DNA of 64,000 nt from Candidatus Omnitrophota bacterium (GCA_016930235.1 JAFGHI010000030.1:43834-107833); one strand, 5' to 3'. Numbered from the stretch's first letter, positions 12,441-52,722 are shown. Program-made: numbers and translations. Notes: generated by a model not told the origin, from the sequence alone.

Positions 12441-13501
12441 ATCCGCTGGATGCATTGGTCGAACAACCGGTCGAATGGCTGCGTGTCAGCGGGCCCGAGA
12501 GTGATATTGTCGTCAGTTCCCGTTTGCGGCTGGCCCGGAATCTTTTTGGGGTCCCTTTTTTGCAAAAGCTGGAGAATGAGCAAAAAGTCGAGGTTATTGA
12601 AACCGTCGAAAAGGCCATCCGAAGAAGCCCCCGGATGAAAGATGCACACTATCTTAAACGCGCGCAGTTAAGTGAGTTGGATCTGCAGTTCCTTCTTGAA
12701 CGGCATTTAATCAGCCGGGAACATGTCGAGGAGAAGGGAGAAAAGGCCGTTGCGATTACCTCCAACGAAGTGGTAAGCCTGATGGTGCTTGAAGAGGATC
12801 ATCTGAGACTCCAGGCTTTTCAGGCGGGGTTTAGTCTTATGGATACATGGAGGATTATCAATCAAATCGATGATGATCTGGAAAAAAATTTAAATTATTC
12901 CTTTAGTGCTTCACTGGGTTATTTGACGGCATGTCCGACCAATGTCGGGACGGGATTAAGAGCTTCTTGCATGTTGCATTTACCGGGCCTTGTTTTAACG
13001 AAACAAGTTCACAAGGTCCTTCAAGCGTTAGCTAAATTGAATTTAACAGCGCGCGGTTTATACGGTGAAGGAACTCAAGCCACGGGGAATTTTTTTCAAT
13101 TTTCGAATCAAACAACGCTGGGACAAAACGAGGATGAAATTATTGATAATCTCGCTGCGGTCATCCGGCAGGTCATTGAACATGAAAAGGAAGCACGGCG
13201 TTACTTGGTTGAAAAAAAGAGAGTGAAATTTCAGGATCAAGTCTGGCGTGCTCTGGGAACTTTGAGGTCAGCCCATGTCATTTCATCCACGGAGGCGACA
13301 CAGTTGCTTTCGTTGGTGCAATTGGGCCTCCAATTAGAGATTTTGAAAGGGGCCCTGACGAAACAGGAGTTAAATCTTTTGTTTCTCCTGATTCAGCCTG
13401 CTCATTTGCAGAAATTATCCCGCAAGGCCTTGAGTGCGCCGGAACGGGACATCCGAAGGGCAGAGCTGATTCGTCAGAAATTCCAGAAAATCTCACTTTA
13501 G
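12437..13501 (+). CDS. mcsB: Protein arginine kinase McsB (ATP:guanido phosphotransferase)
   Basis: It carries the CPTNVGTGLRAS phosphagen-kinase active-site motif. It overlaps the mcsA stop by 4 bp. Confidence 0.85.
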   Translation: MNPLDALVEQPVEWLRVSGPESDIVVSSRLRLARNLFGVPFLQKLENEQKVEVIETVEKAIRRSPRMKDAHYLKRAQLSELDLQFLLERHLISREHVEEKGEKAVAITSNEVVSLMVLEEDHLRLQAFQAGFSLMDTWRIINQIDDDLEKNLNYSFSASLGYLTACPTNVGTGLRASCMLHLPGLVLTKQVHKVLQALAKLNLTARGLYGEGTQATGNFFQFSNQTTLGQNEDEIIDNLAAVIRQVIEHEKEARRYLVEKKRVKFQDQVWRALGTLRSAHVISSTEATQLLSLVQLGLQLEILKGALTKQELNLLFLLIQPAHLQKLSRKALSAPERDIRRAELIRQKFQKISL

Positions 13502-13575
13502 TCGATGCATTAAATGATTTGTCAATAGTGTCATCATCAATAGGTCAAGAATAGGCCATAGGAGCCTTTGGGAGG

Positions 13576-16035: not shown

Positions 16036-16051
16036 TTCCGAAGAGGGGTTT

Positions 16052-33664: not shown

Positions 33665-35221
33665 ATGGCTGAACCCAGGGATCCGAATCAGGCACAGAGG
33701 GATATGATGGAAAACATGAGGAGGATGATGAGCCAATTTGGCACACGTCCGGATCCTCAGGCTGAACGGGTCAGGGAACAAGAGGAAGAGAAACAGAGGC
33801 AGAAACGCAAAGAAGTCCTTTCCTTTGATCTCAAACCCAAAGATGTCAAAAAGTATTTGGATCGGTACGTCATCAAGCAAGAAGATGCCAAACGGGTTTT
33901 GGCCACGGCGGTTTGTGACCATTACAACCATGTCAAACGCCAGCGGGAGAAAGGCAAAAGCCGGCACTATGTCAAACAAAACGTTTTGATGCTGGGTAAG
34001 ACGGGGGTTGGGAAGACTTTCCTTATTCGGAGTTTATCCGAACTTATCGGTGTCCCTTTTATAAAAGCGGATGCGACGAAATTCAGCGAAACGGGTTATG
34101 TCGGAGGTGACGTTGATGATCTTGTGCGGGACCTAGTTCACAAGGCCGATGGGGATATGGAGCTTGCCGAATGCGGTATGATCTATATCGACGAAATCGA
34201 TAAGATTGCAGCTCCCTCGAATGTTCAGGGGCGTGATGTCAGCGGGAGCGGTGTTCAAAGGGGACTTTTGAAAATTATGGAGGAAACCGAAGTGCCGCTT
34301 CGTAATCCCCAGGACATTCAATCTCAGATTCAATCGCTTGTTGAGTTCCAACAAAAAGGCAAAACGACACGCCCGATGATTAATACGCGGAATATCCTTT
34401 TCATTGTCAGCGGTGCCTTTGAGGGGCTTGCGGCCATTACGGAGAAAAGAGTCAAATCTTTAGAGATCGGTTTTTCGTCATCGGCCCCGAAACATATCCC
34501 CAAAGAGGACCTTTTCAGGGCATCGAAAACGGAAGATTTTATACAGTTTGGGTTTGAACCGGAATTTATCGGCCGCCTTCCTGTCCGTGTGATCTGTGAT
34601 CCATTGAGTGCACAGGACCTTTATACTATTTTGACCGTCTCGGAAGGCTCCATTTTGAGGCAATACGAGGAATCTTTCCGCGCGTACGGCATTGAAATCC
34701 AGTTCAATGATGATGCCTTATGGGAAATCGCCAAAAGGGCCTCAAATGAAGGAACGGGTGCACGGGGTTTGGTCACGATCTGCGAAAAGATCTTCCGGGA
34801 CTTGAAATATGAGCTTCCTTCCAGCAGGCTGAAGTCGTTCCGGCTCACCCGCGAGATGGTGGCTTCGCCGAAGAAAGGAATGGAGGAATTGCTCCAGGAG
34901 GAAAGGGAGGAAAAGATTCGAGAAATAGAGCTTGAGATTACCGAATTCGAAAAGATTTTTTCCGACAAAAATGGCATTGCTATTGAGTTCGATCCAAAAG
35001 GGCGTCGAGCCATTCAAGAACACGTGTTAGAAGAGAGTGTTCAAGTGAAACCTTTCTTAGAAAATCTGCTTTCAAATTATCCCCATGGTTTAGAGCTAAT
35101 TCGCAAAAAGGAGCCGCGTCATAAGTATGTGTTAAATCAGGACGTGGTTAAGGACCCCAACCATTTTCTGGAAGAGTGGATTAAGAATACTTATGAAACC
35201 GGGCCTATAAAGCAGCGGTAG
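33665..35221 (+). CDS. ClpX-like AAA+ ATPase lacking the N-terminal zinc-binding domain, with a ~140-aa C-terminal extension
   Basis: It has a Walker A (LGKTGVGKTF), a Walker B (MIYIDEIDKIA), a VQRGLLKIMEET box, an IGF-like loop (SLEIGFSS) and a sensor-2 (GARGL). The first 70 aa contain no Cys. Confidence 0.7.
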   Translation: MAEPRDPNQAQRDMMENMRRMMSQFGTRPDPQAERVREQEEEKQRQKRKEVLSFDLKPKDVKKYLDRYVIKQEDAKRVLATAVCDHYNHVKRQREKGKSRHYVKQNVLMLGKTGVGKTFLIRSLSELIGVPFIKADATKFSETGYVGGDVDDLVRDLVHKADGDMELAECGMIYIDEIDKIAAPSNVQGRDVSGSGVQRGLLKIMEETEVPLRNPQDIQSQIQSLVEFQQKGKTTRPMINTRNILFIVSGAFEGLAAITEKRVKSLEIGFSSSAPKHIPKEDLFRASKTEDFIQFGFEPEFIGRLPVRVICDPLSAQDLYTILTVSEGSILRQYEESFRAYGIEIQFNDDALWEIAKRASNEGTGARGLVTICEKIFRDLKYELPSSRLKSFRLTREMVASPKKGMEELLQEEREEKIREIELEITEFEKIFSDKNGIAIEFDPKGRRAIQEHVLEESVQVKPFLENLLSNYPHGLELIRKKEPRHKYVLNQDVVKDPNHFLEEWIKNTYETGPIKQR

Positions 35222-35249
35222 CGGTTCATAACAGTAAATGTGAAGACAG

Positions 35250-36371
35250 ATGAAAACGGGTATTGCGCATTTGCCGCTCCACGGCGGAAAAGCACCGCGC
35301 TGGCTTTTTGACAGAATGACAAAATTGGCCCGTGGAATGGTCATGGTCATTATCGAAGAATATGGCCCTGAAGAGATGCTCAAACGGTTATCGGACCCTT
35401 ATTGGTTTCAGGCGTTCGGGTGTGTGCTGGGTTTCGACTGGCATTCAAGCGGTTTGACGACGACCGTCGGAGGTGCTTTGAAGGAGGGCCTCCGTGATGT
35501 CGAGCTTGAGATTGGCTTCTTTGTGGCGGGCGGAAAAGGGGGAACGTCGAGAAAGACACCTCAGGAAATCGAAACGGTGTCAGAAAGAACAGGGATCGAT
35601 GCGAAACCTTTGGTCTATGCAAGCCGGATGGCGGCTAAAGTCGATTCCGCGGCTTTACAGGATGGTTTCGAGTTGTACCACCATAATTTCTTTCACACAT
35701 CGAGCGGCCGGTGGTGTGTTGTTCAGCAGGGAATGAATAAAGAAAACCGTTATGCGAGGCGATATCATTGGCTCGGGGATAAGGTTTCTGATTTCGTTTG
35801 TGAACCTCACGCAGCGGTTTGTTGTGATTTCCAGACCGCGGTCTTGAATATGGTTCACCGCGAGAGTGAAAAAGCCAGACAGAGGTCGGTTGTGATTTCA
35901 AGACATGATCCCGACAGAACATTCCATGAGCTTGAGGCCATAGTTCGTTTGGATATGCCCAGACGCCATGGGATTCGGGAGGAATTCGATATCGACCCTA
36001 AACGATTTCATAAGGTCTTGCTCAAAACCTATGAATATCAGCCGAATGGTTTTGAGACATTATTAAGTATGCAGGGGATAGGACCGAAAACAATACGGGC
36101 GCTGACCTTGATGAGCGAACTTATTTACGGGGAACGGCCGAGTTATCAAGATCCGGTCCGCTATAGTTATGCCCATGGGGGAAAAGACGGGTTTCCCTAT
36201 CCCGTTGATCGTAAAACTTATGATCAATCGATTGATTGTCTTCGATTGGCCCTTGATCGGTCAAAAATCGACCGATCCGAACGCATTCATGCTCTTAAAC
36301 GTTTAGTCGCATTTTATGACAGCAGATCACCCCAACGAAATCAGAATAGGGTGACGGGAGGATTGCCATGA
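35250..36371 (+). CDS. Conserved hypothetical protein (possibly the DUF763 family)
   Basis: It has a conserved-looking N-terminus (LPLHGGKAPRWL...DWHSSGLTT). No catalytic motif was recognised. Confidence 0.4.
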   Translation: MKTGIAHLPLHGGKAPRWLFDRMTKLARGMVMVIIEEYGPEEMLKRLSDPYWFQAFGCVLGFDWHSSGLTTTVGGALKEGLRDVELEIGFFVAGGKGGTSRKTPQEIETVSERTGIDAKPLVYASRMAAKVDSAALQDGFELYHHNFFHTSSGRWCVVQQGMNKENRYARRYHWLGDKVSDFVCEPHAAVCCDFQTAVLNMVHRESEKARQRSVVISRHDPDRTFHELEAIVRLDMPRRHGIREEFDIDPKRFHKVLLKTYEYQPNGFETLLSMQGIGPKTIRALTLMSELIYGERPSYQDPVRYSYAHGGKDGFPYPVDRKTYDQSIDCLRLALDRSKIDRSERIHALKRLVAFYDSRSPQRNQNRVTGGLP

Positions 36372-36760
36372 AAAAAGAAGGTCCTTTTTCGTTTCTTGAA
36401 TGGTTTAAATCATTTCGTTATGCAGCGGTCGGGATGTGGGATATGTTGCGGACTGAACATAACGCATGGGTGCATGCCATTGTGACCGTGTTTGTCTTGG
36501 GCTTTTCAGTGTGGTTGCGGATTAGCGGTTTGGAATTTAGCATGATCGTCATGGCGGTTGTCGGGGTATGGGCCGCTGAAGCTTTCAACACGGTTCTGGA
36601 AATTGTGATGAATATGATCTCACCGGAGTATTCGCGGGCGGCGCAGAGAGCAAAAGATATTGCTGCTGGCGGAGTTTTGATCGCATCGATCGGTTCTGCT
36701 ATTATTGGGCTCTTTATTTTGGGACCTCCGCTTTGGGCGAAATTGCAAATATTATTCTAA
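36368..36760 (+). CDS. dgkA: Diacylglycerol kinase / undecaprenol kinase (DgkA family)
   Basis: It is 130 aa with 3 TM segments, and has NTVLE and AKDIAAGGVL motifs. Confidence 0.8.
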   Translation: MKKEGPFSFLEWFKSFRYAAVGMWDMLRTEHNAWVHAIVTVFVLGFSVWLRISGLEFSMIVMAVVGVWAAEAFNTVLEIVMNMISPEYSRAAQRAKDIAAGGVLIASIGSAIIGLFILGPPLWAKLQILF

Positions 36761-36784
36761 GTCAAACAGGAAAACTAAAGGGTC

Positions 36785-38533
36785 ATGAATCCTGAAGAAT
36801 TTGAATCCCTCAGCTCTGAAGAGCAAATTAAAATTTTTCATAAGAGCTCGTTTAAAGAAAAAGGAGAGCTTATCCTGCATTCCCATCATCCGGAGGCTTT
36901 GACTCATTCCCTGTCTCAGGAAGAACTTTATCTGACGACTCGCGAAATGGATATTGAGGAAAGAAGCGAGATCATCCGTTTTGCTTCAAGACCTCAACTG
37001 TATTTTGTTACGGATGTTGATTGCTGGGAAAAAGACAGGATTAGTACGAGCGGATTTACCACATGGATGGAGATTCTCCTGAAATCCGGGGATCATCAGC
37101 TCTTGGCATGGCTGACAGGGATGGATTACGAGACGATCGTTGCGGGTTTGAAACGGATGATTCGGGTTGAGAAACCCGAGCGCGAATATGCGATGGATGA
37201 TGTTTTGGGGGATGTGCCCTATTTTACAATCGATAACTATTATTTTATTTTTGTGAAAGAGGAACAGCTTGAAACCATGCGGAGGACCTTTGAGATTTTG
37301 TTCGAAAATTACCGGGGGCGGTATGTGGCGCTTTTAGAAGGCGTTCTTAGCGAGATTGAGGATGACCTGGAGGAAGAGGCGTATCAGAAACGTGAGCAGC
37401 GTTTAGCCGAGAGGGGATTCCCGGAACCTGAAATTGCTCACCGGATTTACCGGCCGATGACACCCGAGGAATTTCGTGAGTCTCCGCTTAAATCAAAGGA
37501 AGGCGATAAAGCCGAAGGGGCTATCGTCTCGGAAGTTTCATTGCCTCCCAATTATCTGCGCATGTGGTCGGAGAACAGGCTCTTTCTGGATGATGTTTTG
37601 TTGTCTCTCAGAGGCGAGGAGATAGAAATTCAGGAGGGTATTCAGGAAGAATTGGCCTGGCTGTCCAATAAAACCATTGCTTGCGAGGGGTTGGTCTTTT
37701 CTTCAGAAGAAAATGTGAAGCGGGGAGTTGAAAGGGCGCGGAATTTTGTGAATTTGGGGCTTGAGATAGTAAGCGGGAAGGATCTTGAGGTTGCCAAAAA
37801 AATTGTGAAAACAAGGTGGCTTGAAAACATCTTCCGTGTAGGGGCCGGGGCCCTTATCCCATTACGCGAAAAGAGCATGAAATTAGTCCGCATACTATGG
37901 AAAGGTGACCAGGAGGGTTTTCTGAGATTTCTTGACTCTCCGTATGGATCGATTTTGAAGGGATTGCTTTTGCGTGTTCCCGATCATTACGATGATCAAG
38001 AAAAAAACAACCTGGATCATTTGCGTGATTTTCGGACGGCTGAAGATATTCAAAAGGATGAGCATAGTCTTGAACAGATTCGGTTGGTTATGACGTTTTT
38101 ATCCAAGCGTTTTCCTGTGTTATGGAATGATGTTTTGAACGGGCGAGGTCCAGAATCCCTGTTTCAATTATTGGGAACACTTTATGCGCAGTTTGTGCTC
38201 TGGGGGCAAGTCAAGAATCATGTTCTAAGCTCTCAGGAAGTGATTCAATTTATCCGGTCAGCCTTTGACCCAGAAGGAGCTCGAAGAGTATTGAAGCATG
38301 AGATGAAAAAGAAATTCATGGATACCTTTTTTAATGAGGAGGATCAAAATTCCTTAAAGTCGTTTTGGGGGATCATTTTCAGTGAGATGGAAGATGAATT
38401 AGGCAGATTAAATATCGAGAAGGGTTTGCGGCCTGAATATATCGGGATTCTATCGGTGGCTTCGGGGACGAAACCGGCAACAAAAAAAATCGAAAAGAGA
38501 AAAAAGAAAAAACTCTCGGGGAGCACGAATTAG
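36785..38533 (+). CDS. Hypothetical 582-aa soluble protein with a Lys-rich C-terminal tail
   Basis: It is a long ORF with coding-like composition. No domain was recognised. Confidence 0.5.
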   Translation: MNPEEFESLSSEEQIKIFHKSSFKEKGELILHSHHPEALTHSLSQEELYLTTREMDIEERSEIIRFASRPQLYFVTDVDCWEKDRISTSGFTTWMEILLKSGDHQLLAWLTGMDYETIVAGLKRMIRVEKPEREYAMDDVLGDVPYFTIDNYYFIFVKEEQLETMRRTFEILFENYRGRYVALLEGVLSEIEDDLEEEAYQKREQRLAERGFPEPEIAHRIYRPMTPEEFRESPLKSKEGDKAEGAIVSEVSLPPNYLRMWSENRLFLDDVLLSLRGEEIEIQEGIQEELAWLSNKTIACEGLVFSSEENVKRGVERARNFVNLGLEIVSGKDLEVAKKIVKTRWLENIFRVGAGALIPLREKSMKLVRILWKGDQEGFLRFLDSPYGSILKGLLLRVPDHYDDQEKNNLDHLRDFRTAEDIQKDEHSLEQIRLVMTFLSKRFPVLWNDVLNGRGPESLFQLLGTLYAQFVLWGQVKNHVLSSQEVIQFIRSAFDPEGARRVLKHEMKKKFMDTFFNEEDQNSLKSFWGIIFSEMEDELGRLNIEKGLRPEYIGILSVASGTKPATKKIEKRKKKKLSGSTN

Positions 38534-38536
38534 CTT

Positions 38537-38905
38537 ATGTCTGATTTTGAAATCCGTTTTTTTGAAAAGATTATTAAAGAGAAACCCGATCATATCGATG
38601 CGCTTAAGTTATTAGCGGAGGCCTATACAAGAAAGAAACACTATAGCGAAGGGCTGGACATGGATCAACGGTTGTCTGTATTGTGTCCGGAAGACCCCGT
38701 CGTCCATTATAACTTAGCCTGCAGTCTGGCCTTGGTGGGTAAAAAAGAACAGGCCATTCAAGCTTTAAAGCTAAGCATGAAAATGGGTTATGTCGATCTC
38801 GAACACCTCAAAAAGGACCCCGATCTGGATGTTTTGCGGGAGGACCCCTCCTTTCACGAATTGATCAAATCTTTAGAGAAATCAAAAAATTCTAACTCGC
38901 GATGA
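38537..38905 (+). CDS. Small TPR-like repeat protein
   Basis: It has helical TPR-like repeats (ALKLLAEAY..., VHYNLACSLALVGKKEQAIQAL). It is spaced 3 bp from the upstream ORF. Confidence 0.55.
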   Translation: MSDFEIRFFEKIIKEKPDHIDALKLLAEAYTRKKHYSEGLDMDQRLSVLCPEDPVVHYNLACSLALVGKKEQAIQALKLSMKMGYVDLEHLKKDPDLDVLREDPSFHELIKSLEKSKNSNSR

Positions 38906-39016
38906 CATCTAGGGGATCAGTAGAATTATTTGTTCATGGTTTCAAGAAATTATGCCGTTAGGTAAATTGGTACTCTGCGAATGGGGGTATCTATCTCATA
39001 AGCTCAAAGGGGAATA

Positions 39017-40633
39017 ATGACGACTTATTCGTATGATGCAGTCATATTTGATTTAGATGGTGTGATCACAAAAACGGCCCGCGTTCATGCTCAGTCGTGG
39101 AAGGTTGTTTTTGACGATTACTTGCTCTACCGATCGAAACGATACAAGGAGCCGCTCCGGGAATTCGATATAAGTTCTGATTACCTGACTTATGTCGATG
39201 GGAAACCTAGGTATCAGGGCGTTAAGAGTTACCTTCAGTCGATCGATATCGAAGTCCCTTTTGGAGATCCTTCAGATCCGCCTGATAAAGAGACGATTTG
39301 CGGGATCGGTAACCGTAAAAACTCGATCTTCAGTGAGGTTTTAAGGAAACGCGGCGTTGAAGTTTTTCCCAAGACGATAGAGCTGGTCAAAGCCCTTCAT
39401 GAGAAGAAGATTCGCGTGGGTGTCGCGTCATCATCAAAGAATTGCCAGCTCATCTTAAAGTCGGCCAATATCGACCATTTATTTGAGACGCGTGTGGACG
39501 GAGAGGTTTCCATGGAACTGGGGCTTACGGGAAAACCCGAAGGCGATATCTTTGTGAAGGCAGCAGAAAATTTGGGGGTCTTGCCGGCGAGGTCGGTTGT
39601 GGTGGAGGACGCCACCTCAGGTGTTCAGGCCGGACGAAACGGCGGATTCGGTTTTGTTCTGGGTGTTGCAAGAAAAGAAAATGAAAATGAGCTGCTCGCC
39701 AATGGTGCCGACATCGTGGTGAAGGATTTGGGTGATATCAATATGGAAATCATCGAGCAATGGTTTCAAAAGAAAGCGCGGCCGCTTTTTCAGGAATGGG
39801 AGCACCCAACATCGAAATCGGATTCTCTGCCACCGAAAGGGCCTGCCGGAGGGGAGATTTTTATCAACCCGTGCCAATTAAGAGCAGGCAAAGACCTTTT
39901 TTCTTCCGGGAAAAAATTTGTTTTCTTTTTAGATTATGATGGGACCTTGACCCCGATTGTCTCAAGGCCTGATCTGGCGGTTTTATCCCCTTCGATGAAA
40001 GAAGTCCTGGAGCGTTTGATGAAGAAACATATGGTATCGATTGTGAGCGGCCGGATGAGAGAGGATGTCCAAAAACTTGTTGGGATTCAGGGTATTTTTT
40101 ATGCAGGGAGTCACGGATTTGATATTTTGGGGCCGGGTTTCTCGATGATCCAGCCGAAAGCAAAAGAGACCATCCCGGTTATTTCTACGATCATCAAGAA
40201 GCTTCATAAAGAATTAGGCGATATTCCGGGGGCCTTGATTGAAGAAAAGAAATTTAGTGTGGCTGTTCATTACAGACTGGTAGAAGGGCAATCCCTTGCG
40301 CGCATTCAAACAACGGTGGAGCGGATCGTCAGCAAACACGAGAATGTACGCATGATGAGCGGGAAGAAGGTATATGAAATCTTACCCAATATTGAATGGA
40401 ACAAAGGCAAGGCGATTCGGTGGATCATGAAGGCGCTCAAGTTATCTTGGGAAGAATGCTCCGTTTTTTACATCGGGGATGATGTAACCGATGAATTTGC
40501 CTTCAGAACAATACGGACACGCGGAACCGGAATTTTGGTTTCGGACGAATCGAAACCATCTTCAGCCGATTTTCAAATCCAGACACCTGATGATGTCAAA
40601 AAACTCTTCGAGAAAATCATTGCGGCGGCATAA
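39017..40633 (+). CDS. Fusion of a beta-phosphoglucomutase-like HAD domain with a trehalose-6-phosphate phosphatase (OtsB-like) domain
   Basis: The N-terminal domain has VIFDLDGVIT and KPEGDIF, consistent with beta-PGM. The C-terminal domain has FFLDYDGTLTP and GDDVTDE, the trehalose_PPase motifs. Confidence 0.75.
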   Translation: MTTYSYDAVIFDLDGVITKTARVHAQSWKVVFDDYLLYRSKRYKEPLREFDISSDYLTYVDGKPRYQGVKSYLQSIDIEVPFGDPSDPPDKETICGIGNRKNSIFSEVLRKRGVEVFPKTIELVKALHEKKIRVGVASSSKNCQLILKSANIDHLFETRVDGEVSMELGLTGKPEGDIFVKAAENLGVLPARSVVVEDATSGVQAGRNGGFGFVLGVARKENENELLANGADIVVKDLGDINMEIIEQWFQKKARPLFQEWEHPTSKSDSLPPKGPAGGEIFINPCQLRAGKDLFSSGKKFVFFLDYDGTLTPIVSRPDLAVLSPSMKEVLERLMKKHMVSIVSGRMREDVQKLVGIQGIFYAGSHGFDILGPGFSMIQPKAKETIPVISTIIKKLHKELGDIPGALIEEKKFSVAVHYRLVEGQSLARIQTTVERIVSKHENVRMMSGKKVYEILPNIEWNKGKAIRWIMKALKLSWEECSVFYIGDDVTDEFAFRTIRTRGTGILVSDESKPSSADFQIQTPDDVKKLFEKIIAAA

Positions 40634-43082
40634 AAAGAAAAAGTCAAAAGGGGAAGTCCTTTCTCCGTGGTCGATTACCTATTTAGGGTTTGATCCTTGC
40701 CAAGAAGGATTGAGGGAAGCCCTTTGTACTTTGGGTAACGGGTACATGGGGGTTCGTGGGGCCTCACCGCAGGTGGATGCTTCGGATGATCACTATCCGG
40801 GCATGTATTTGGCGGGACTTTACAATAAGACACCTACCAAGATTGCAGGGCGGACCATTTACAATGAAGATATGGTGAATTGTCCGAATTGGATCCATAT
40901 TACGTTTCGGATTGGTGAGGGGGAGTGGTTTACTCCGAAATCCGAGAATATTCTTGAATATTCCCAGGAACTTGACATGCGCGCGGGGTGTTTGAAAAGG
41001 AAAATGCGGGTCAAGGATAGTCGCGGACGGATTACGCTTGTTGAAACGGAGCGGATTGTTTCGATGAAGGATCCCCATCTTGCGGCCATCCGCCATCGAA
41101 TGACACCCCTTAATTATGATGGCTATCTGAGTATCAAGTCGACCCTTGACGGGACCGTCAAGAATTGGGGGGTTAAGCGATACCGGGAGCTCAATTGCCA
41201 ACATCTCAAACACAAACGGGCTAAACGAATCGGCAGGGATGGCATTGCTCTTTCTGTCATGACGACTCAATCCAAGGTCGAGATTGCCGAGGCATCTGTC
41301 CTGCGATGTTTTTCGAACGGAAGAGAAATTAAGCCAAAGTTTAAATTTTCGCTCGATAGAAAAGCGCCGATCTCACAGGAGTTGTGGGTTCGCGCTAAGC
41401 GCAAGAAGAAGTACGATTTTGAAAAGGTCGTAGCGGTTTATACTTCGAGAGATGCCGGCGTCCAAGACCCGTTCCGCGCGGCTATTAGGGCCGTCCGTCA
41501 AGGAAATCGTTTCGAGACCTTGAAAAAAGAGCACGCTGAATGCTGGAATGAATTATGGCGGAAGTTTGACGTCGAAATTGAGGGGGACCTTTTTTCTCAA
41601 GCCGTTCTTCGTTTACATATTTTCCATTTACTCCAGACCGCATCTTTGCATAATTCAAAGATCGATGCAGGATTACCTGCAAGAGGACTGCATGGTGAGG
41701 CCTATCGAGGGCATGTCTTTTGGGATGAGCTTTTTGTGATGTCTCTCTTTGACCTTCATGCCCCCGAAATTTCGAAGGCGTTGTTGAGGTATCGCTACGA
41801 AAGGCTGCCCAAATCCAGGAAATATGCTACCCAAAACGGGTATCGCGGCGCGATGTTTGCTTGGCAGAGCGGCTCGACAGGTGTGGAGGAAACACAGATT
41901 GTTCATCTTAATCCTATGTCGGGTGAGTGGGGACCGGACGCCAGCCGGATTCAACGACATGTTTCGTTCGCGATTGCTTACAACATGTGGGCTTATTGGC
42001 AAAGGACGGGTGATCTTAAGTTTTTTTCTTCCTGCGGCGCAGAGGTATTGTTGTCCATTGCTCAATTTGGGGCGAGTCTGGCGAAGTTCGACAAAGGTGA
42101 CCGCCGTTATCATACCGACGGCATTATGGGGCCCGATGAATTTCATGAGTACCTCCCCGGGGCTAAAAAGCCCGGTTTTCGTGATAATGCCTACACAAAT
42201 TTAATGATTGTATGGACGCTTTTGCGTTCAAGGGAAGCCTTGGAGATTCTCCCGGCATCTGATCGCAAACGTTTAATTAAAAAACTCGGGATTACCCGCA
42301 AGGAATTAACGCGGTGGGATAACATTATACATCAAATGAATGTTTATGTTGCCTCCGACGGCGTTATTAGCCAGTTTGACGGTTATTTCCGGTTAAAGGA
42401 ATTAAACTGGGATGCTTACCGGAAGAAGTACGGCAAGATCGGACGGCTGGATCGCATCTTGAAAGCTGAGGGCAAATCGCCGGATGATTATAAGGTGTCA
42501 AAACAGGCCGATCTCTTAATGCTTTTTTATATCCTGCCCATCGGTGAGATTGAAGAATTGTTTAATCGATTGGGATATGTCTTTGATCCAAAGTTGCTTA
42601 CGATCAATTATCATTATTATGAACCCCGGACCTCCCACGGTTCAACGCTCAGCAAAGTGGTTCACGGGTATTGTGCGCATTTGATGGGAAAATCCAAGGT
42701 TTCGTGGGATTGGTTTCTTGAAGTTTGCCGCTCCGATATCCATGACACACAGGGCGGAACAACCCCCGAAGGTATTCACTGCGGGGTGATGGGAGGATCG
42801 CTGGATATGGTTCAGCGGGCATTTGCAGGTGTCCATATTTTAAGCGACCGGGTCAAGATTAATCCAAGATTGCCGAAAGCCTGGCGCAAACTGCATCTGA
42901 AGCTCTTCTGCCGCGGGCATTGGATGGAATTTTGGATCAACCATCATCGGATCACTTGTGTGTTGGAGAGTTCTCCTCAGAAACCTTTTCCTCTTCCTGT
43001 GGAAATTGGTGGAAAGCGCGTGGATGGAATAGGGAATCAAAAGAGATCTTTTTCCTACCGCTCGCATATTGAGTCGATTTAA
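40590..43082 (+). CDS. Glycoside hydrolase family 65 disaccharide phosphorylase (trehalose, trehalose-6-P or kojibiose phosphorylase type)
   Basis: The N-terminus WSITYLGFDP...LGNGYMGVRG is typical of GH65, as is the (alpha/alpha)6 core. The start is uncertain: the ORF opens at 40491, 40590 is the likelier start, and either way it overlaps the upstream gene. Confidence 0.8.
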   Translation: MMSKNSSRKSLRRHKKKKSKGEVLSPWSITYLGFDPCQEGLREALCTLGNGYMGVRGASPQVDASDDHYPGMYLAGLYNKTPTKIAGRTIYNEDMVNCPNWIHITFRIGEGEWFTPKSENILEYSQELDMRAGCLKRKMRVKDSRGRITLVETERIVSMKDPHLAAIRHRMTPLNYDGYLSIKSTLDGTVKNWGVKRYRELNCQHLKHKRAKRIGRDGIALSVMTTQSKVEIAEASVLRCFSNGREIKPKFKFSLDRKAPISQELWVRAKRKKKYDFEKVVAVYTSRDAGVQDPFRAAIRAVRQGNRFETLKKEHAECWNELWRKFDVEIEGDLFSQAVLRLHIFHLLQTASLHNSKIDAGLPARGLHGEAYRGHVFWDELFVMSLFDLHAPEISKALLRYRYERLPKSRKYATQNGYRGAMFAWQSGSTGVEETQIVHLNPMSGEWGPDASRIQRHVSFAIAYNMWAYWQRTGDLKFFSSCGAEVLLSIAQFGASLAKFDKGDRRYHTDGIMGPDEFHEYLPGAKKPGFRDNAYTNLMIVWTLLRSREALEILPASDRKRLIKKLGITRKELTRWDNIIHQMNVYVASDGVISQFDGYFRLKELNWDAYRKKYGKIGRLDRILKAEGKSPDDYKVSKQADLLMLFYILPIGEIEELFNRLGYVFDPKLLTINYHYYEPRTSHGSTLSKVVHGYCAHLMGKSKVSWDWFLEVCRSDIHDTQGGTTPEGIHCGVMGGSLDMVQRAFAGVHILSDRVKINPRLPKAWRKLHLKLFCRGHWMEFWINHHRITCVLESSPQKPFPLPVEIGGKRVDGIGNQKRSFSYRSHIESI

Positions 43083-43159
43083 CGTAAAATACCCCCTTTC
43101 GACATCGGTTGGTACAAAATCATGGATCTGGATAAGATGAAGGAGAAGAGTTAAATTTT

Positions 43160-43765
43160 ATGGATGAACCATCGGAGTTAAGACAAAAGACAATCGCAAT
43201 TGCCAAAAAACATAAGGCGTCCTGGATCGAGCTGGGGCAGTATCTTTATACCATCCATAAGGATAAGCACTATAAAAGTTGGGGCTATCTTAGTTTCCAA
43301 ACTTATTGCAAGAAGGAGCTCAGCATCAAAGAAACCACGGCGGCAAAACTTATGAAGTCCTATCATTTTTTGGAAAAGGAAGAACCCAGAATGGTTTCCC
43401 CGACTTTTCTGGAAAAGGAGGAATCGGCCAAGATCCCTGATTATGAAGCCGTGAACGTCCTAAGATTGGCTAAGCAGAATCAGAAAATTAACACGGGCGA
43501 TTTTTCGGATTTGCGGGAAGCCGTTTTAAACGCTGCCAAAGAACCCCAGGAGATTCGGGCCCAAATCAAACAGATTCTTGAGGATCGCGATGAGAGGGAA
43601 CCCGATGAGATTCAGAGGTCCAAAAGAAATGCTTCGATTAAACGTTTGGTGACGATGCTGTCCTCGATGAAAAAGCAGATGGAAAGCGAAAAACTTTTGC
43701 CCGCTTATTTGATTAAGCAGATGGCCGATTTGGCGGGGAAACTTGAAGATCAGCTGGAGGAATAA
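43160..43765 (+). CDS. Hypothetical 201-aa charged helical protein
   Basis: It is an ORF only, located upstream of the histidine kinase. Confidence 0.45.
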   Translation: MDEPSELRQKTIAIAKKHKASWIELGQYLYTIHKDKHYKSWGYLSFQTYCKKELSIKETTAAKLMKSYHFLEKEEPRMVSPTFLEKEESAKIPDYEAVNVLRLAKQNQKINTGDFSDLREAVLNAAKEPQEIRAQIKQILEDRDEREPDEIQRSKRNASIKRLVTMLSSMKKQMESEKLLPAYLIKQMADLAGKLEDQLEE

Positions 43766-43779
43766 AGGCGGGTTGGACC

Positions 43780-45156
43780 GTGGATGATAGGCTCAAAAAG
43801 ATACTGGAAGCGATGAAAGCGATTGAGGTCGGAAATTTTCATTCGGTGAAGCCGGTGGAAGGGTCGGACGAACTCGCGAAGATTTCCAGAAAACTTTGTG
43901 AATTAGGACGACATTTTGATGTGAAGCTTCAGGGATTCCAAAAGATTGCCAGGATCACTGAAGAGATCAATCAAGGGCTTACCTTGGAAGAAATCCTGAA
44001 CCATGTTTATGATTCTTTCAGGACGATGATTCCTTATGATCGGATCGGGTTTGCGCTCCTTGAAGATCATGAGACAATCGTCAGATCCAAATGGCAGCGT
44101 TCCGAGGCTCCGGATTTGCGTATTACGGCAGGTTATTCGGCAAGACTTGAAGGGAGCAGCCTTGAGAAGATCATACGGACAAACCGTCCAAGGATCTTAA
44201 ATGACTTAGAGGACTATCTTAAAAATCATCCCAAGTCGGATTCGACCCAACGCATTGTTGAGGAGGGGATGAGGTCAAGCCTGACTTGTCCTTTGATTGC
44301 TTTGGGAAAACCGCTTGGTTTCATCTTTTTTTCAAGCATGAAGAAAAAGACGTATCAGGATATTCATGTGGATTTATTTATGCAGATTGCGGGGCAGCTG
44401 GCCGTGATCGCCGAGAAGGGCAAACTCTATGAAGAACTCGTGATCTTAAATGAGCAAAAGAACCGGTTTCTCGGTATTGTGGCACATGATTTGCGCGCCC
44501 CTTTGGCTACCATCAAAGGGTACTTGGGAATCCTGTTGGGTGGATTACTGGGTGAGATCCCGGATAATCAAAAGCACCCCTTGGAAAAGATGACGATCAC
44601 ATCGGACAAAATGCTTTCTTTGATCAAGAATCTTTTGGATGTCAGCGTGATTGAGTCCGGGGTATTGAATTTGGATAAGAAGACGGTTGATTTGACGGAA
44701 TATCTCAACGAAAGCCTTTCGTTTAATACCTTGATTGCGAAGGGCAGAAATTTCTCGCTACGGGCAGACATCGGCCCGGATCTTCCGAAGGTTGTGATCG
44801 ATCCGGATAAAATGGACCAGGTCATCAATAATCTGGTTGGGAATGCCATCAAATTTTCGAAACCGGGGACGGCGATTACCTTAAGGGCCAGGGTGGAAGG
44901 GCAAGAGGTGCATATTTCTGTTCAGGATGAGGGGCAGGGGATACCTCCGGGTGAGATTGCGAAACTTTTCAAGGATTTCGGCAAGACAATCATTAAACCG
45001 ACCACTCGCGAAGCCAGCACGGGTTTGGGATTGGCGATAGCCAAAAAGATGGTTGAAGCCCATCATGGACGAATTTGGGTTGAAAGTGTTCCCGGGAAAG
45101 GCTCTACCTTTACTTTCTCAATTCCCTTAGAGCAAGTTGCAGAAAAGGCAATTTAA
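43780..45156 (+). CDS. Cytoplasmic GAF-domain sensor histidine kinase
   Basis: The H-box is VAHDLRAPL. The N and G boxes (NLVGNAIKFS, GTGLGLAI) are present. It has no TM segment. Confidence 0.8.
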   Translation: MDDRLKKILEAMKAIEVGNFHSVKPVEGSDELAKISRKLCELGRHFDVKLQGFQKIARITEEINQGLTLEEILNHVYDSFRTMIPYDRIGFALLEDHETIVRSKWQRSEAPDLRITAGYSARLEGSSLEKIIRTNRPRILNDLEDYLKNHPKSDSTQRIVEEGMRSSLTCPLIALGKPLGFIFFSSMKKKTYQDIHVDLFMQIAGQLAVIAEKGKLYEELVILNEQKNRFLGIVAHDLRAPLATIKGYLGILLGGLLGEIPDNQKHPLEKMTITSDKMLSLIKNLLDVSVIESGVLNLDKKTVDLTEYLNESLSFNTLIAKGRNFSLRADIGPDLPKVVIDPDKMDQVINNLVGNAIKFSKPGTAITLRARVEGQEVHISVQDEGQGIPPGEIAKLFKDFGKTIIKPTTREASTGLGLAIAKKMVEAHHGRIWVESVPGKGSTFTFSIPLEQVAEKAI

Positions 45157-45184
45157 GACCGGATCTTGCCTCAGAGAGGATATT

Positions 45185-45898
45185 CTATCCTGAGGGTTTT
45201 TCCTGAAAACGAAAACCGTAGCCGTGCACGGTTTCGATGTTCATCCCATAAGGTCCCAATTCCTTGCGAAGCCTTTGGATGGCCGAATCAATCGCCCGTG
45301 ATTGGGAGGACCCTCTTTTTTTCCAGACGGCCTTTCCCAGGTCTTCCTTGGTGAAGGTCTTACCTTTCTCTTCGAGGAAGAGTTTCAGTAAGGCGAATTC
45401 TTTCGGTCGTAGATTCATCACCTGGCCGTCAATCCGGCATTCGTGCTTGGGCAAATCTAACTCCAAGGTTTCGAATTTCAGGACGGACGGTAGAGCGGTA
45501 TCAGGTTTGCTGACATCTTGCCGGCGTCTTAAGAGAGCTTCAATTCGAGCAACAAGTTCATTGGTTGCAAATGGCTTTGGCAAATAGTCATCCCCCCCAA
45601 GTTTTAATCCTAAGACCTTGTCTTCAATCTCCTGTTTTGAGGAAAGGAAGAGAATTGGGATTAATTTCGTGCGGTCTTGGTTTCTCAACTCATGGCAGAG
45701 CTCGAGGCCGTCTCCGTCCGGTAAAACACGGTCCAAGAGGATAAGATCGGGTATTGTCTTCGTCAGGGTTTCTCTTGCTTCAGCAAGATTGAATGCCGAA
45801 ATAGCACGGTATTTTTGAAAGGTCAGGATATCGTTCAGAAGGGATTGTATCCCCGGCTCATCGTCAACGACCAGAACGACTGATGCTTTGGATGTCAT
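45185..45898 (-). CDS. OmpR-family response regulator (REC plus winged helix)
   Basis: The REC domain has VVDDE...D...K. The C-terminus (YGFRF) is an OmpR/PhoB-type DNA-binding domain. Confidence 0.85.
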   Translation of the reverse strand: MTSKASVVLVVDDEPGIQSLLNDILTFQKYRAISAFNLAEARETLTKTIPDLILLDRVLPDGDGLELCHELRNQDRTKLIPILFLSSKQEIEDKVLGLKLGGDDYLPKPFATNELVARIEALLRRRQDVSKPDTALPSVLKFETLELDLPKHECRIDGQVMNLRPKEFALLKLFLEEKGKTFTKEDLGKAVWKKRGSSQSRAIDSAIQRLRKELGPYGMNIETVHGYGFRFQEKPSG

Positions 45899-45954
45899 GA
45901 TTTGATTTGTCTCCCGCTTATTTTGACCTTGATTCTAGGGGAACGCTTGATATT

Positions 45955-46518
45955 TTAAAACAGATATTTTTTGTAGTAGCGGAGCTCTTCAATGGATTCA
46001 AGGATGTCGGTTTTTGCGCGGTGGGCTTCCTTTTTTGATGGATGAGAGGGCAGAGATATTGCCCATCGGGAGCAAAGTTCTTTTAATGTGCTGACATCGA
46101 TAAGGCGGTAGTGCAAGTACCGATGAATGAGGGGCATGTGTTTTGCCAAAAATCTCCGGTCATGGTGGATGGAATTACCGCAGAGGGGGGATTGCCCTTG
46201 CGGAGTGTAAGACTTGAGAAATCGCAAGATGGCCTGTTCGGCTTTTTTGACCGATAACCGGGATCTTTTGACTTCTTGAAGAAGTCCCGATGTCTGATGA
46301 TGTTGTCGATTCCAGGCGTCCATTTTTCTGAGGACACTTTCTGGATGATGAATCACGAGTTCGGGGCCTTCGGCGATGATCGTGAGCTGGTTATCCGTGA
46401 TCAAAACGGCAATCTCGAGGATCTTGTCTTGATCGGGATCGAGTCCCGTCATTTCCATATCGATCCAGACGAGATATTTCGAAGGTTTATTTTTTTTCCG
46501 GTGATGTTTCGGCATCAT
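45955..46518 (-). CDS. orn: Oligoribonuclease (DEDDh 3'-5' exonuclease)
   Basis: It has LVWIDMEMTGLDP, and the DEDDh residues are present. Confidence 0.85.
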   Translation of the reverse strand: MMPKHHRKKNKPSKYLVWIDMEMTGLDPDQDKILEIAVLITDNQLTIIAEGPELVIHHPESVLRKMDAWNRQHHQTSGLLQEVKRSRLSVKKAEQAILRFLKSYTPQGQSPLCGNSIHHDRRFLAKHMPLIHRYLHYRLIDVSTLKELCSRWAISLPSHPSKKEAHRAKTDILESIEELRYYKKYLF

Positions 46519-50668: not shown

Positions 50669-50851
50669 ATGAGAAAAACTTTTTTGGGGCTCCTTTTCAT
50701 TGTCGCGCTGCACGCGGTTTACACGTTTCGCGCCTTTCCTGTCTTGGATTTGGCGTTTTCGACGCCCCTCCTGAGCATTGATTACGGAACTCATTATTTT
50801 CAAACTCGGCAAACCTTAGGATTCGAGAAGATACGAATTTATCTCTCATGA
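50669..50851 (+). pseudogene. Decayed N-terminal remnant (~50 aa) of a third paralog of the downstream membrane-protein genes
   Basis: FRAFPVLDLAFSTPLLSIDYGTHYFQTRQTL aligns to the N-termini of the two downstream proteins (VFPVYQLDPGTPILINDFSIHHYQTEQML and VFPVQKLDLQTPILTHDMAFHHYQTQQAL). It then diverges and stops. Its stop overlaps the next ATG (ATGA). Confidence 0.45.
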
Positions 50852-52722
50852 AAAAAACGATTCTTTTGCTGCTTTTACTCGTTCTTGCGCAAGGATTATT
50901 TATTTATCGAGTATTTCCCGTTTATCAATTGGATCCCGGGACGCCGATTTTGATTAATGACTTTTCGATTCATCATTATCAAACCGAGCAGATGCTCTAT
51001 TTATTGAAACATTTCGGCAAGGTTTCGGGGTACGATCCTTTCTTTATGGCGGGTTATCCCGGCGTTGTGGTGAATTTGACGGATAATTACGGAGTGGCTT
51101 TCACCCTTGGTTTGTTGTCGATGTGGCTTCCTTTGGCGATTGCCGAAAAGTTATTTCTTATCGGCATGCTGTTCCTATTTCCCATTATTATTTATCTGGC
51201 AGCCGTTTGCTTAGGGCTGAGCCGGTCTCAGAGTTTTTTAGCCGGGATCCTGTTAGTCGTGGTGATGCAATATCATGAGTATTACCGGTCTTTGATGAAC
51301 TGGGGGCTTTATAGCTTTGTGATCTCTATCTTTCTATCGATCCTTTGGTTTTCGCTGATTGTCCGGTATTTTAAAGAACGAAGTCGGAGAAAATGGCTGG
51401 CCGCGCTTCTGGTGGGGGCTTATACCGTATCGGTTCATCCGCTTTCGGTGCCCATGTTTTTGAGCTTCCTTGGACCGTATCTTATCTTCGATGCCAAGAA
51501 ATTGACACGCCGCTTCTTTAACGGTCTTTTGGTGATGATGCTGTTAATCGTTCTGGCCAACAGTTATTGGATCGTCCCGTTATTGCTTCACAGCGGTTAT
51601 TATCATCAGGAAGCGATCTATCAAAAGGCGTTTGGGTTTGAAAAATTCATCAAAGATTTAATGAGTGTTGACCAAGCCATCTTTCATATCCTGATGGTCC
51701 TATCCGTGATCGGAACGCTTATTTCATTGCGAAAGAAAAAAATAGAAGCTCCGGTCGTCCTGGCTCTTTGGTGTGCCTTTTTTATTTTCTACGGCATCAG
51801 TTATTTCGGGGAACATTCGCTGGTTCAGAATTACTTTTCACATATCGAACCCGCAAGGTTTATCACCGCGGCTGTTTTTTTGATCCCGCTCTTGACGGTT
51901 TATGGGATCTCCGGTTGGGGGGAGGAGCGGATCCGGAATCTAGCTGTTCTCTTGATCTTCTCGATGATCGCGATGCAGGCATATTGCTTAAGTTCGATTC
52001 AACATCAGGATAACTGTACGGCAAGTCGTATCAAGAGGGTTCTGTGCGGGAACATGTGCCAACCGACGGAATGGGGAAAGGATATTATGGCTGAAGGAGG
52101 AGACAGGCTCGTGCGTCGAATTCGCGAGGTCACAGATCCGAGTGCGCGAATCTTATTGGAAGATCACATTTGGGACTTTGTGTATTGGGATTCACGTTTA
52201 CCGGCTTTAATGTCGATGCTAACAGAGCGAAGCTATATCGGGGGCCCTTTCCCGCACTTGTCGACAAAATATAATTTTGCGAACTTCTCAAGCGGGATGA
52301 TCTTTGGAAGGGCCATCCAGGAGATCCCGATCGGTGAGTTGATGGAGTATATGAAGCTCTACAATGTCGGATGGGCTGTTATTCATAGCCCCGAGGCCAC
52401 TCGATATTTTCAAATGCATGGAGTTCGATTCCGGTTTCTCGGCAAGGTACCGGGCCCCGAGGGGTGGGAGTTTAGATTTTATCGAGTAGCCTCTGAGAGG
52501 AATTATTTTGTTCGAGGCAAGGGCAAGGTTACGATGGAATGGAACGAATTAAAATTATCCGGATTAAGTGAGGGTGAAATTATTTTAAAGTTTCATTACG
52601 CAAGGGACCTTCGGACGAAGCCGCCCGTTTTAATCCAAAAGGTCGATTATTTGGATGATCCCATGGGGTTTATCAGATTGGAGAACCGTGAGGGCTATGA
52701 CACGATCCGGATTACTCAATGA
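50848..52722 (+). CDS. Large polytopic membrane protein with a C-terminal soluble domain (unknown family, GT-C-like architecture)
   Basis: It has ~9-10 predicted TM helices in the first ~370 aa, followed by a ~250-aa hydrophilic domain. Confidence 0.6.
   Translation: MKKTILLLLLLVLAQGLFIYRVFPVYQLDPGTPILINDFSIHHYQTEQMLYLLKHFGKVSGYDPFFMAGYPGVVVNLTDNYGVAFTLGLLSMWLPLAIAEKLFLIGMLFLFPIIIYLAAVCLGLSRSQSFLAGILLVVVMQYHEYYRSLMNWGLYSFVISIFLSILWFSLIVRYFKERSRRKWLAALLVGAYTVSVHPLSVPMFLSFLGPYLIFDAKKLTRRFFNGLLVMMLLIVLANSYWIVPLLLHSGYYHQEAIYQKAFGFEKFIKDLMSVDQAIFHILMVLSVIGTLISLRKKKIEAPVVLALWCAFFIFYGISYFGEHSLVQNYFSHIEPARFITAAVFLIPLLTVYGISGWGEERIRNLAVLLIFSMIAMQAYCLSSIQHQDNCTASRIKRVLCGNMCQPTEWGKDIMAEGGDRLVRRIREVTDPSARILLEDHIWDFVYWDSRLPALMSMLTERSYIGGPFPHLSTKYNFANFSSGMIFGRAIQEIPIGELMEYMKLYNVGWAVIHSPEATRYFQMHGVRFRFLGKVPGPEGWEFRFYRVASERNYFVRGKGKVTMEWNELKLSGLSEGEIILKFHYARDLRTKPPVLIQKVDYLDDPMGFIRLENREGYDTIRITQ

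Follow-up and report, generated by a model that had tools for sequence, protein, structure and literature searches.

Two overlapping genes at positions 39017-43082 of a 64,000-nucleotide (nt) stretch of DNA from a Candidatus Omnitrophota bacterium (GCA_016930235.1, JAFGHI010000030.1:43834-107833; this whole 64-kb stretch is called the window below) encode three predicted enzyme activities that meet at trehalose 6-phosphate (Tre6P). The product of the first gene is a 538-amino-acid (aa) fusion of a predicted beta-phosphoglucomutase (beta-PGM) and a predicted Tre6P phosphatase, and all catalytic residues of both are intact. The second gene encodes a predicted Tre6P phosphorylase of glycoside hydrolase family 65 (GH65). 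We propose, with a probability of approximately 0.5, that the two genes form a cassette for nucleotide-sugar-independent trehalose synthesis leading from glucose 6-phosphate (G6P) through beta-G1P (beta-glucose 1-phosphate), then Tre6P, to trehalose.

In the proposed scheme, the overlapping genes would constitute a self-contained, translationally coupled cassette. The GH65 enzyme, working in its favoured direction, would convert beta-G1P and G6P to Tre6P and inorganic phosphate (Pi), and the C-terminal phosphatase domain of the fusion protein would irreversibly hydrolyse Tre6P to trehalose and Pi and thereby pull the chain. The net reaction would be 2 G6P + H2O to trehalose + 2 Pi. Where a further GH65 phosphorylase is present, its action on alpha-glucans or kojibiose could also yield beta-G1P. 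The proposal builds on what the domains are, on catalytic residues that are intact, on an active site of the phosphorylase kind, on a specificity signature of the Tre6P type and on the pairing of the two genes, which is conserved.

The two genes and their products

The fusion gene spans 39017-40633 on the plus strand, on which all features of the cassette described here lie, and by direct sequence reading its ATG is preceded at a distance of 3 nt by a Shine-Dalgarno-like AAAGGGGA (39006-39013). The initial annotation had described the product as a single beta-PGM/Tre6P phosphatase fusion, which was confirmed by Pfam and NCBIfam. Pfam placed HAD_2/Hydrolase at residues 6-213 and Trehalose_PPase at residues 304-522, and the protein scored above the cutoffs of TIGR02009 (beta-PGM family; 165.9 vs 153.35 bits) and TIGR00685 (T6PP equivalog; 175 vs 68.05 bits). 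It is 100% identical to a protein (P0001) named 'MAG: trehalose-phosphatase [Candidatus Omnitrophica bacterium]' (MAG, metagenome-assembled genome). A beta-PGM-type HAD-IA domain (residues 6-241; 39032-39739) is followed by a variable linker (approximately residues 250-297) and an OtsB-type HAD-IIB Tre6P phosphatase domain (residues 298-536; 39908-40624).

An alignment of 22 orthologues showed that the key residues of the beta-PGM domain (D12/D14, S138-S140, K173 and E197-D198) are invariant, as are the cap residues H24 and W28. Among the remaining cap residues, R65 and the 'RKN' at 100-102, K101 is invariant, R65 and N102 are near-invariant, and R100 belongs to neither group. The N-terminal half aligns with the Lactococcus lactis beta-PGM at the DxD, Ser, Lys and Glu-Asp motifs, which we take to be D8/D10, S114, K145 and E169-D170 in that enzyme. 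In addition, H24, W28, R65, R100-K101-N102 and S140-K141-N142 match cap and core positions of the L. lactis protein, where His20, Trp24, Arg49, 'RKN' and Ser116-Lys117-Asn118 presumably hold the hexose and the distal phosphate. A much better alignment than with L. lactis beta-PGM was obtained with 8h5s (E 7e-57), a 260-aa 'Beta-phosphoglucomutase' that has a long cap insertion in common with the window protein and its DxD at residues 27/29. This fits Mycobacterium tuberculosis Rv3400, which was studied as a D29A mutant, and 8h5s is probably Rv3400 or a protein of its type. Rv3400 is a beta-PGM in vivo, and its D29A mutant and deletion build up beta-G1P approximately 30-fold.

The motifs DYDGTLTP and GDDVTDE, noted earlier for the C-terminal half, are located at residues 306-313 and 487-493, respectively. 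D306, D308, S344-G345-R346, K450, D488, D489 and D492 are invariant in the same 22 orthologues, and the catalytic residues of the HAD domains are kept in 119-120 of the 120 single-chain proteins in which both domains are joined to GH65 (see below). This half aligned best with M. tuberculosis OtsB2, in its catalytic domain (5gvx; E 2.9e-44). A pseudo-phosphatase lacking catalytic Asp residues, which the initial annotation had named as one outcome that would speak against it, was ruled out, every catalytic residue being retained in the orthologues and in these triple fusions.

The GH65 gene (40620-43082) carries all three Pfam domains of its family (PF03636, PF03632 and PF03633). Its residues, counted from the ATG at 40590, were mapped through an alignment with CsKP and then followed by script over 121 sequences. 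According to a review of the GH65 family, CsKP has its catalytic acid at E483, its -1 subsite at W343, D344, K596 and Q597, and a phosphate site (K330, Y337, S631, S632 and H675) that replaces the base of the hydrolases. The corresponding residues of the window enzyme lie in the catalytic (alpha/alpha)6 domain (41610-42803) and comprise the acid E517 within GPDEFHE, the -1 subsite W378, D379, K638 and Q639, and the phosphate site R365, Y372, S685, T686 and H730, all of which are conserved throughout the 121 sequences. A complete phosphate site in place of the catalytic-base Glu of hydrolases identifies the enzyme as a phosphorylase.

Six specificity positions have been defined for GH65 enzymes (CsKP 64, 392, 394, 402, 416 and 585; De Beul et al. 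2021), and in the same study an enzyme from Caldithrix abyssi was predicted from the motif DQGQDE to be a Tre6P phosphorylase and then shown to make Tre6P from beta-G1P and G6P. At these positions, the window enzyme has D94, in the N-terminal domain, and Q426, G428, Q436, D450 and E627, within 41610-42803, which gives exactly DQGQDE. The motif is found in 76 of the 121 close homologues, and the remainder deviate at one or two positions; DQAQDE and SQGQDE are among the variants at one position. We therefore predict a Tre6P phosphorylase (EC 2.4.1.216; subgroup 22 of De Beul et al. 2021). A grouping with the maltose phosphorylases, which the initial annotation had considered as a counter-indication, is not what this signature indicates. 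Maltose, kojibiose and trehalose phosphorylases were ruled out as candidates, since their motifs KV[MF]NES, EEAPxx and TRIGPP (De Beul et al. 2021) are all unlike DQGQDE. Loops 3 and 7 are long and loop 11 is short in the Tre6P phosphorylase subgroup, a pattern it shares with kojibiose phosphorylase; in a comparison of the window enzyme with CsKP by eye, no deletion is seen in loop 3 (398-421), the loop 7 region is not shorter, and loop 11 is one residue longer.

The closest solved relative is 9lb6 (E 4e-147, compared with 2e-110 for kojibiose phosphorylase and 3e-57 for maltose phosphorylase). In the alignment, 9lb6 carries the same DQGQDE and active-site residues and was deposited as 'Trehalose-6-phosphate hydrolase'; a hydrolase, as this name would suggest, was ruled out for the window enzyme by its complete phosphate site. 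The structure probably originates from a cited 2025 paper on a Tre6P phosphorylase structure; a literature search with the code 9LB6 found no paper.

The initial annotation had placed every in-frame GH65 start inside the upstream gene, with an overlap of 44-143 nt. The first statement holds for all canonical starts (ATG 40491, TTG 40497, ATG 40590, ATG 40593 and TTG 40620), and the range was too narrow because only ATG had been counted: TTG 40620 gives the shortest possible overlap of 14 nt. The GH65 frame is open from 40491 to its stop at 43082 and reads into the upstream gene for 143 nt before the stop of that gene. The overlap zone (40590-40633) contains the candidate starts ATG 40590, ATG 40593 and TTG 40620 and the upstream stop TAA (40631-40633). 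Between this stop and the conserved Trp codon at 40668, there is no in-frame ATG, GTG or TTG, and a Shine-Dalgarno-like AAAGGGGAAG at 40647-40656 has no in-frame start before this Trp. In relatives from Omnitrophota and Atribacterota, GH65 usually starts with a TTG that arises where the Phe and Glu codons (TTT GAA) of 'KKLFEKI', the C-terminal stretch encoded by the upstream gene, meet. This TTG is often the sole available start and leads to overlaps of 23-35 nt. Because of a synonymous TTT-to-TTC change (TTC GAG), it is lost in the window, where TCG is found at 40608; what is left is the ATG pair 15-18 nt upstream and a TTG 12 nt downstream. The overlap suggests that translation of the two genes is coupled, and a scan of 35000-46000 for promoters and terminators gave nothing better than shuffled sequences.

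In the NCBI annotation of the MAG, the GH65 gene is represented solely by a 97-aa 'hypothetical protein' (MBN1688355.1, JW893_04585) that corresponds to its C-terminus (42792-43082). The full product exists only as an independent gene call on a Logan assembly, in which TTG 40620 is used, so that an exact 820-aa product is on record, clustered under the 97-aa fragment. Because of this clustering, the homologue search returned no match near 100% identity. The gene caller was probably defeated by an overlapping start that lacks a ribosome binding site. A pseudogene or assembly artefact, as the 97-aa annotation might imply, was ruled out by the intact open reading frame (ORF), the presence of all functional residues and the 820-aa product in the independent assembly.

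Spread of the gene pair and its neighbourhood

A scan of one genome per species yielded 548 stretches with relatives of the fusion protein, the best 80 of which were kept as loci. These loci belong to Omnitrophota, Atribacterota, Thermodesulfobacteriota, Gemmatimonadota, Binatia, Alpha- and Gammaproteobacteria, Verrucomicrobiota, Nitrospiraceae, Ignavibacteriales, Elusimicrobia, one cyanobacterium and others. In 75 of them, the fusion gene is immediately followed, in the same orientation, by a GH65 gene of the same type, and three of the five exceptions end at or shortly past the fusion gene (short contig or partial match). Because the gene order is kept in this many related loci across many phyla, the arrangement is far beyond chance, and it is widespread rather than particular to one genome. 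The genes flanking the cassette in the window (DUF763, DAGK, DUF6178, TPR, a 201-aa ORF and a kinase) are not conserved beside it in the related loci; therefore, the two genes are the unit.

We classified the junction between the two genes in 76 loci, namely the 75 with a downstream GH65 gene and L002. One is a single ORF (L060), 39 have forced overlaps of 1-41 nt, 23 have gaps of <30 nt, and 13 have larger gaps; among the relatives, same-frame arrangements with a stop, 4-nt ATGA overlaps and gaps of up to 274 nt occur. Single-chain forms of approximately 1320 aa that join HAD, T6PP and GH65 are abundant and come from Chloroflexota, Nitrosococcus halophilus Nc4, Opitutales and an archaeon. Such triple fusions, which retain the full set of catalytic residues and an xQGQDE motif, were seen in L060 and in the 120 best database matches. 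In the databases, fused and split forms go by names such as 'trehalose-phosphatase', 'beta-phosphoglucomutase family hydrolase' or 'alpha,alpha-trehalase'. Two further domain combinations were noted: P0347 (1094 aa) joins HAD/beta-PGM to GH65 (DQGQDE) and has no Tre6P phosphatase domain, and in P0002 (871 aa) a PF19796 domain is joined to a beta-PGM half with 56% identity to that of the window.

We take M. tuberculosis OtsB1 (Rv2006, 1327 aa) to contain HAD/beta-PGM-like, Tre6P phosphatase and GH65 modules in the same order on one chain. The window cassette would then be a split form of the OtsB1 architecture, with two ORFs in different frames and a stop at 40631-40633. OtsB1 has been reported to be DosR-regulated and was detected only under carbon starvation.

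The neighbourhood of the cassette was surveyed in the same 76 loci, in which 232 flanking ORFs, 115 of them downstream, were assigned to families ranked by frequency. Recurrent neighbours are mostly regulators and less often genes of trehalose synthesis or stress. Downstream, CBS (14), receiver domains (Response_reg; 10) and DUF5752 (6) recur, and PilZ (5) recurs upstream; TreT, alpha-amylase/CBM48, HSP20 and Usp were also found repeatedly.

Several observations concern signalling. A C-terminal receiver domain is present on 13 of the 120 closest GH65 homologues, and P0137, P0141 and P0143 are among the proteins with a signalling link. Stand-alone receiver and CBS genes are located 3′ of GH65 in several loci, and genes for two-component signalling adjoin the cassette in the window (43160-45898) and in three other loci (L085:6994-7859, L002:7436-7819 and L075:4020-5549). 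In the window, GH65 is followed by a 201-aa ORF without a family and a GAF-HisKA-HATPase kinase, and an OmpR-type regulator lies convergent to these; a GAF kinase also adjoins the cassette in the cyanobacterial locus.

Some loci have beside the cassette a second GH65 gene that is distantly related (27-31% identity) and carries EEAPxx or DEAPxx, the motif of kojibiose phosphorylases (L012:10019-12335, L034:2305-4683, L046:841-3192, L051:948-3302 and L084:12136-14472; also L015 and L023). In L084, a GT4 glycosyltransferase and PEPCK come after it, and in L012, L046 and L051 an OtsA (GT20) gene accompanies it. Taken together, such genes resemble an extended alpha-glucoside/trehalose cluster and are a possible source of beta-G1P.

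Direction of flux and competing explanations

Synthesis by reverse phosphorolysis followed by dephosphorylation, suggested in the initial annotation, is the best-supported reading and now refers to Tre6P; the substrates actually used and the direction of flux are what we infer from the sequences. The formation of Tre6P from beta-G1P and G6P is reported to be strongly favourable, with an eQuilibrator-based Keq of ~760, and L. lactis TrePP reverses in vivo and makes Tre6P when beta-G1P accumulates. From a beta-PGM equilibrium of roughly 28:1 towards G6P, with G6P at 1 mM and Pi at 10 mM, we estimate that the two reversible enzymes would by themselves keep Tre6P at 0.1-3 mM; a phosphatase, if active, would then carry it on to trehalose. 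According to papers that cite Carvalho et al. (2011), L. lactis was engineered for trehalose synthesis with a combination of trePP, pgmB and otsB. Catabolism by way of Tre6P would be a futile flux if the phosphatase joined to beta-PGM is active. We favour synthesis because of the thermodynamics and because the neighbourhoods lack transporters among their frequent families: no phosphotransferase system (PTS) or sugar transporter is found among the 25 most frequent families of the 232 neighbouring ORFs, and no PTS or other sugar transporter family was matched by window ORFs of at least 150 aa. OtsA (GT20), TreT, HSP20 and Usp, on the other side, are among the recurrent neighbours.

Several points weigh against the synthesis proposal. 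The equilibrium of beta-PGM lies towards G6P, and for this reason the supply of beta-G1P from G6P would be small and would need the pull of the later steps. The fusion protein scores under the cutoff of the beta-PGM equivalog TIGR01990 (112.1 vs 189.4 bits), so that the assignment of mutase rather than phosphatase chemistry rests on the conserved residues and on the relative 8h5s. The start of GH65 is uncertain, with 820 aa from TTG 40620 and 829 or 830 aa from the ATGs. OtsA, a PTS or a phosphorylase producing beta-G1P may lie in the genome outside the 64-kb window. Deletion of OtsB1 in M. tuberculosis was without a phenotype and Tre6P phosphatase activity was ascribed only to OtsB2; according to a later paper, the claim that OtsB1 is inactive was published without data. 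Finally, an OtsA gene individually confirmed to adjoin the cassette is present in at least four loci, upstream in L012, L046 and L051 and downstream in L068, and the phosphatase domain in such a position may simply be the OtsB partner of OtsA.

This last arrangement also speaks for the foremost competing explanation, which we consider unlikely, namely that the cassette controls Tre6P homeostasis or acts as an overflow valve. OtsA encoded elsewhere would make Tre6P, the phosphatase domain would serve as its OtsB, and GH65 together with beta-PGM would drain or buffer an excess of toxic Tre6P to G6P; the cassette would thus set the level of Tre6P and not be the source of trehalose carbon. The reversibility of the phosphorylase reaction is compatible with such a role, and the receiver domains, CBS proteins and kinases that recur beside or fused to GH65 suggest regulated switching. 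However, by family count GT20/OtsA neighbours the cassette five times upstream and once downstream, approximately 70 of the 76 loci have no adjacent OtsA, and the 64-kb window contains no match to GT20/OtsA (PF00982). Moreover, with its equilibrium towards Tre6P, the phosphorylase would probably be a poor drain at physiological G6P and Pi, and OtsA operating together with phosphorolysis would waste nucleotide sugar.

Less probable still is trehalose catabolism of the L. lactis type, in which GH65 would split imported Tre6P to beta-G1P and G6P, beta-PGM would convert beta-G1P to G6P, and the phosphatase would be an accessory. TrePP and beta-PGM are both enzymes of the only physiologically established TrePP pathway, and an Rv3400-type beta-PGM is required for the growth of M. 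tuberculosis on trehalose. Degradation, which the initial annotation had offered as its alternative, nevertheless came out as the weaker one, given the absence of transporters described above and a strictly conserved, intact Tre6P phosphatase on beta-PGM that would undo the phosphorylation by the PTS in a futile cycle.

We give little weight to the idea that GH65 glucosylates a different phosphorylated acceptor, which the OtsB-like domain would dephosphorylate to another alpha-glucoside compatible solute. A relaxed acceptor scope is frequent in GH65 phosphorylases according to the literature, the identity of the substrate comes from sequence alone, and approximately one third of the close homologues vary at one signature position (DQAQDE, SQGQDE); against this, the window enzyme has the exact DQGQDE of proven Tre6P phosphorylases, and the phosphatase domain lies >100 bits above the T6PP equivalog cutoff and aligns best with OtsB2. 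A programmed +1 frameshift in the overlap, for example at the A6 run at 40599-40604, would produce one three-domain chain and agrees with the +1 offset, the 143 nt of open GH65 frame upstream of the stop, the AAA AAA Lys-Lys pair inside the overlap and the fused versions in other lineages, but it is very improbable because the relatives differ freely in frame relation and type of junction, no known shift signal or downstream structure was identified, and the shift would remove the conserved C-terminal helix of the phosphatase domain.

Other genes of the window, known systems and significance

Elsewhere in the window, a UVR-motif protein (172 aa), an McsB-like ATP:guanido phosphotransferase (354 aa) and a ClpC-like double AAA+ ATPase (819 aa) are encoded in a row at 11922-16035, presumably an mcsA-mcsB-clpC trio of the arginine-phosphorylation quality control best known from Firmicutes. 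A 518-aa ClpX-like ATPase (33665-35221) scores slightly under the ClpX equivalog cutoffs, and a DUF6178 protein (582 aa) and then a small TPR protein (36785-38905) lie directly upstream of the cassette; neither arrangement is conserved beside the cassette elsewhere. Four large ORFs have no Pfam family at E <= 1e-4 (1291-2382, 363 aa; 15878-17965, 695 aa; 50848-52722, 624 aa; 52655-54616, 653 aa), the last two of which are adjacent and slightly overlapping.

The same two enzyme families as in the window are encoded together in trePP-pgmB of L. lactis (EC 2.4.1.216 and EC 5.4.2.6), where the PTS delivers Tre6P, TrePP splits it and beta-PGM turns beta-G1P into G6P. The window GH65 has the specificity signature of the Tre6P phosphorylase subgroup, and the catalytic and cap residues of the beta-PGM domain of the fusion protein align with those of L. 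lactis beta-PGM. The L. lactis pathway is catabolic, fed by a trehalose PTS and operates without a Tre6P phosphatase, whereas in the window a Tre6P phosphatase is fused to beta-PGM, there is no PTS in the window, and the two genes overlap and belong to an uncultured member of the Omnitrophota. With OtsA-OtsB (TPS/TPP), the cassette has the final step in common, which is catalysed by an OtsB-family Tre6P phosphatase. The preceding step differs: OtsA-OtsB uses a GT20 synthase with UDP- or ADP-glucose, whereas in the window an inverting GH65 phosphorylase would make Tre6P from beta-G1P. A GT20 gene, lacking in the window, adjoins the cassette in a few related loci. The characterised Tre6P phosphorylases of Ca. 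Kuenenia stuttgartiensis (CAJ75349.1) and Caldithrix abyssi (APF18594.1) as well as 9lb6/9lb7 have the same GH65 subgroup signature as the window enzyme.

Engineered routes are also among the closest known systems. The L. lactis strain of Carvalho et al. (2011), as presented in citing papers, unites the same three activities in the synthetic direction, and the one-pot synthesis of Tre6P from GH65 phosphorylases and beta-PGM (Taguchi et al. 2020; PMC13121652) uses two of them, likewise in the synthetic direction. These routes show feasibility and favourable thermodynamics, with genes combined by hand from different organisms; unlike them, the combination in the window occurs naturally, with fusion and overlap, and is kept across phyla. 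The initial annotation had not come across a description of the route, which agrees with the literature insofar as no description of a natural cassette as a trehalose synthesis route was found in the searchable literature, whose coverage is incomplete, while the engineered L. lactis strain, so far as citing papers describe it, precedes it with the same activities. Searches for Omnitrophota trehalose phosphorylases found nothing, a search for OtsB1 likewise found no description of such a route, and a 2025 review treats TrePP only as an enzyme of Tre6P degradation. Each of the enzyme families is well known, and both fused and split architectures are already in databases.

We tentatively extend the proposal, at odds a little short of even, to the split cassette and the abundant single-chain form together, a form that would include OtsB1. 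They may represent a natural and widespread sixth trehalose route that starts from G6P alone, uses no nucleotide sugar and costs one fewer nucleoside triphosphate per trehalose. In many lineages, this route may be switched by two-component phosphorylation via receiver domains fused to or encoded beside the phosphorylase.

Among microbial stress protectants, trehalose is a major one, and mycobacteria also use it as a precursor of the cell envelope. We regard the significance of the finding as moderate, since the chemistry is unsurprising and what is offered is a function, open to testing, for a protein family that is widespread and would count OtsB1 among its members. Should the proposal prove wrong, what remains is a conserved control point of Tre6P. 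If it is true, naturally fused enzymes would be at hand for the cell-free production of Tre6P and trehalose, M. tuberculosis OtsB1 would gain a concrete, testable function, and energy-limited anaerobes such as Omnitrophota, Atribacterota and Chloroflexota would have a cheaper, nucleotide-free route to trehalose that suits their way of life.

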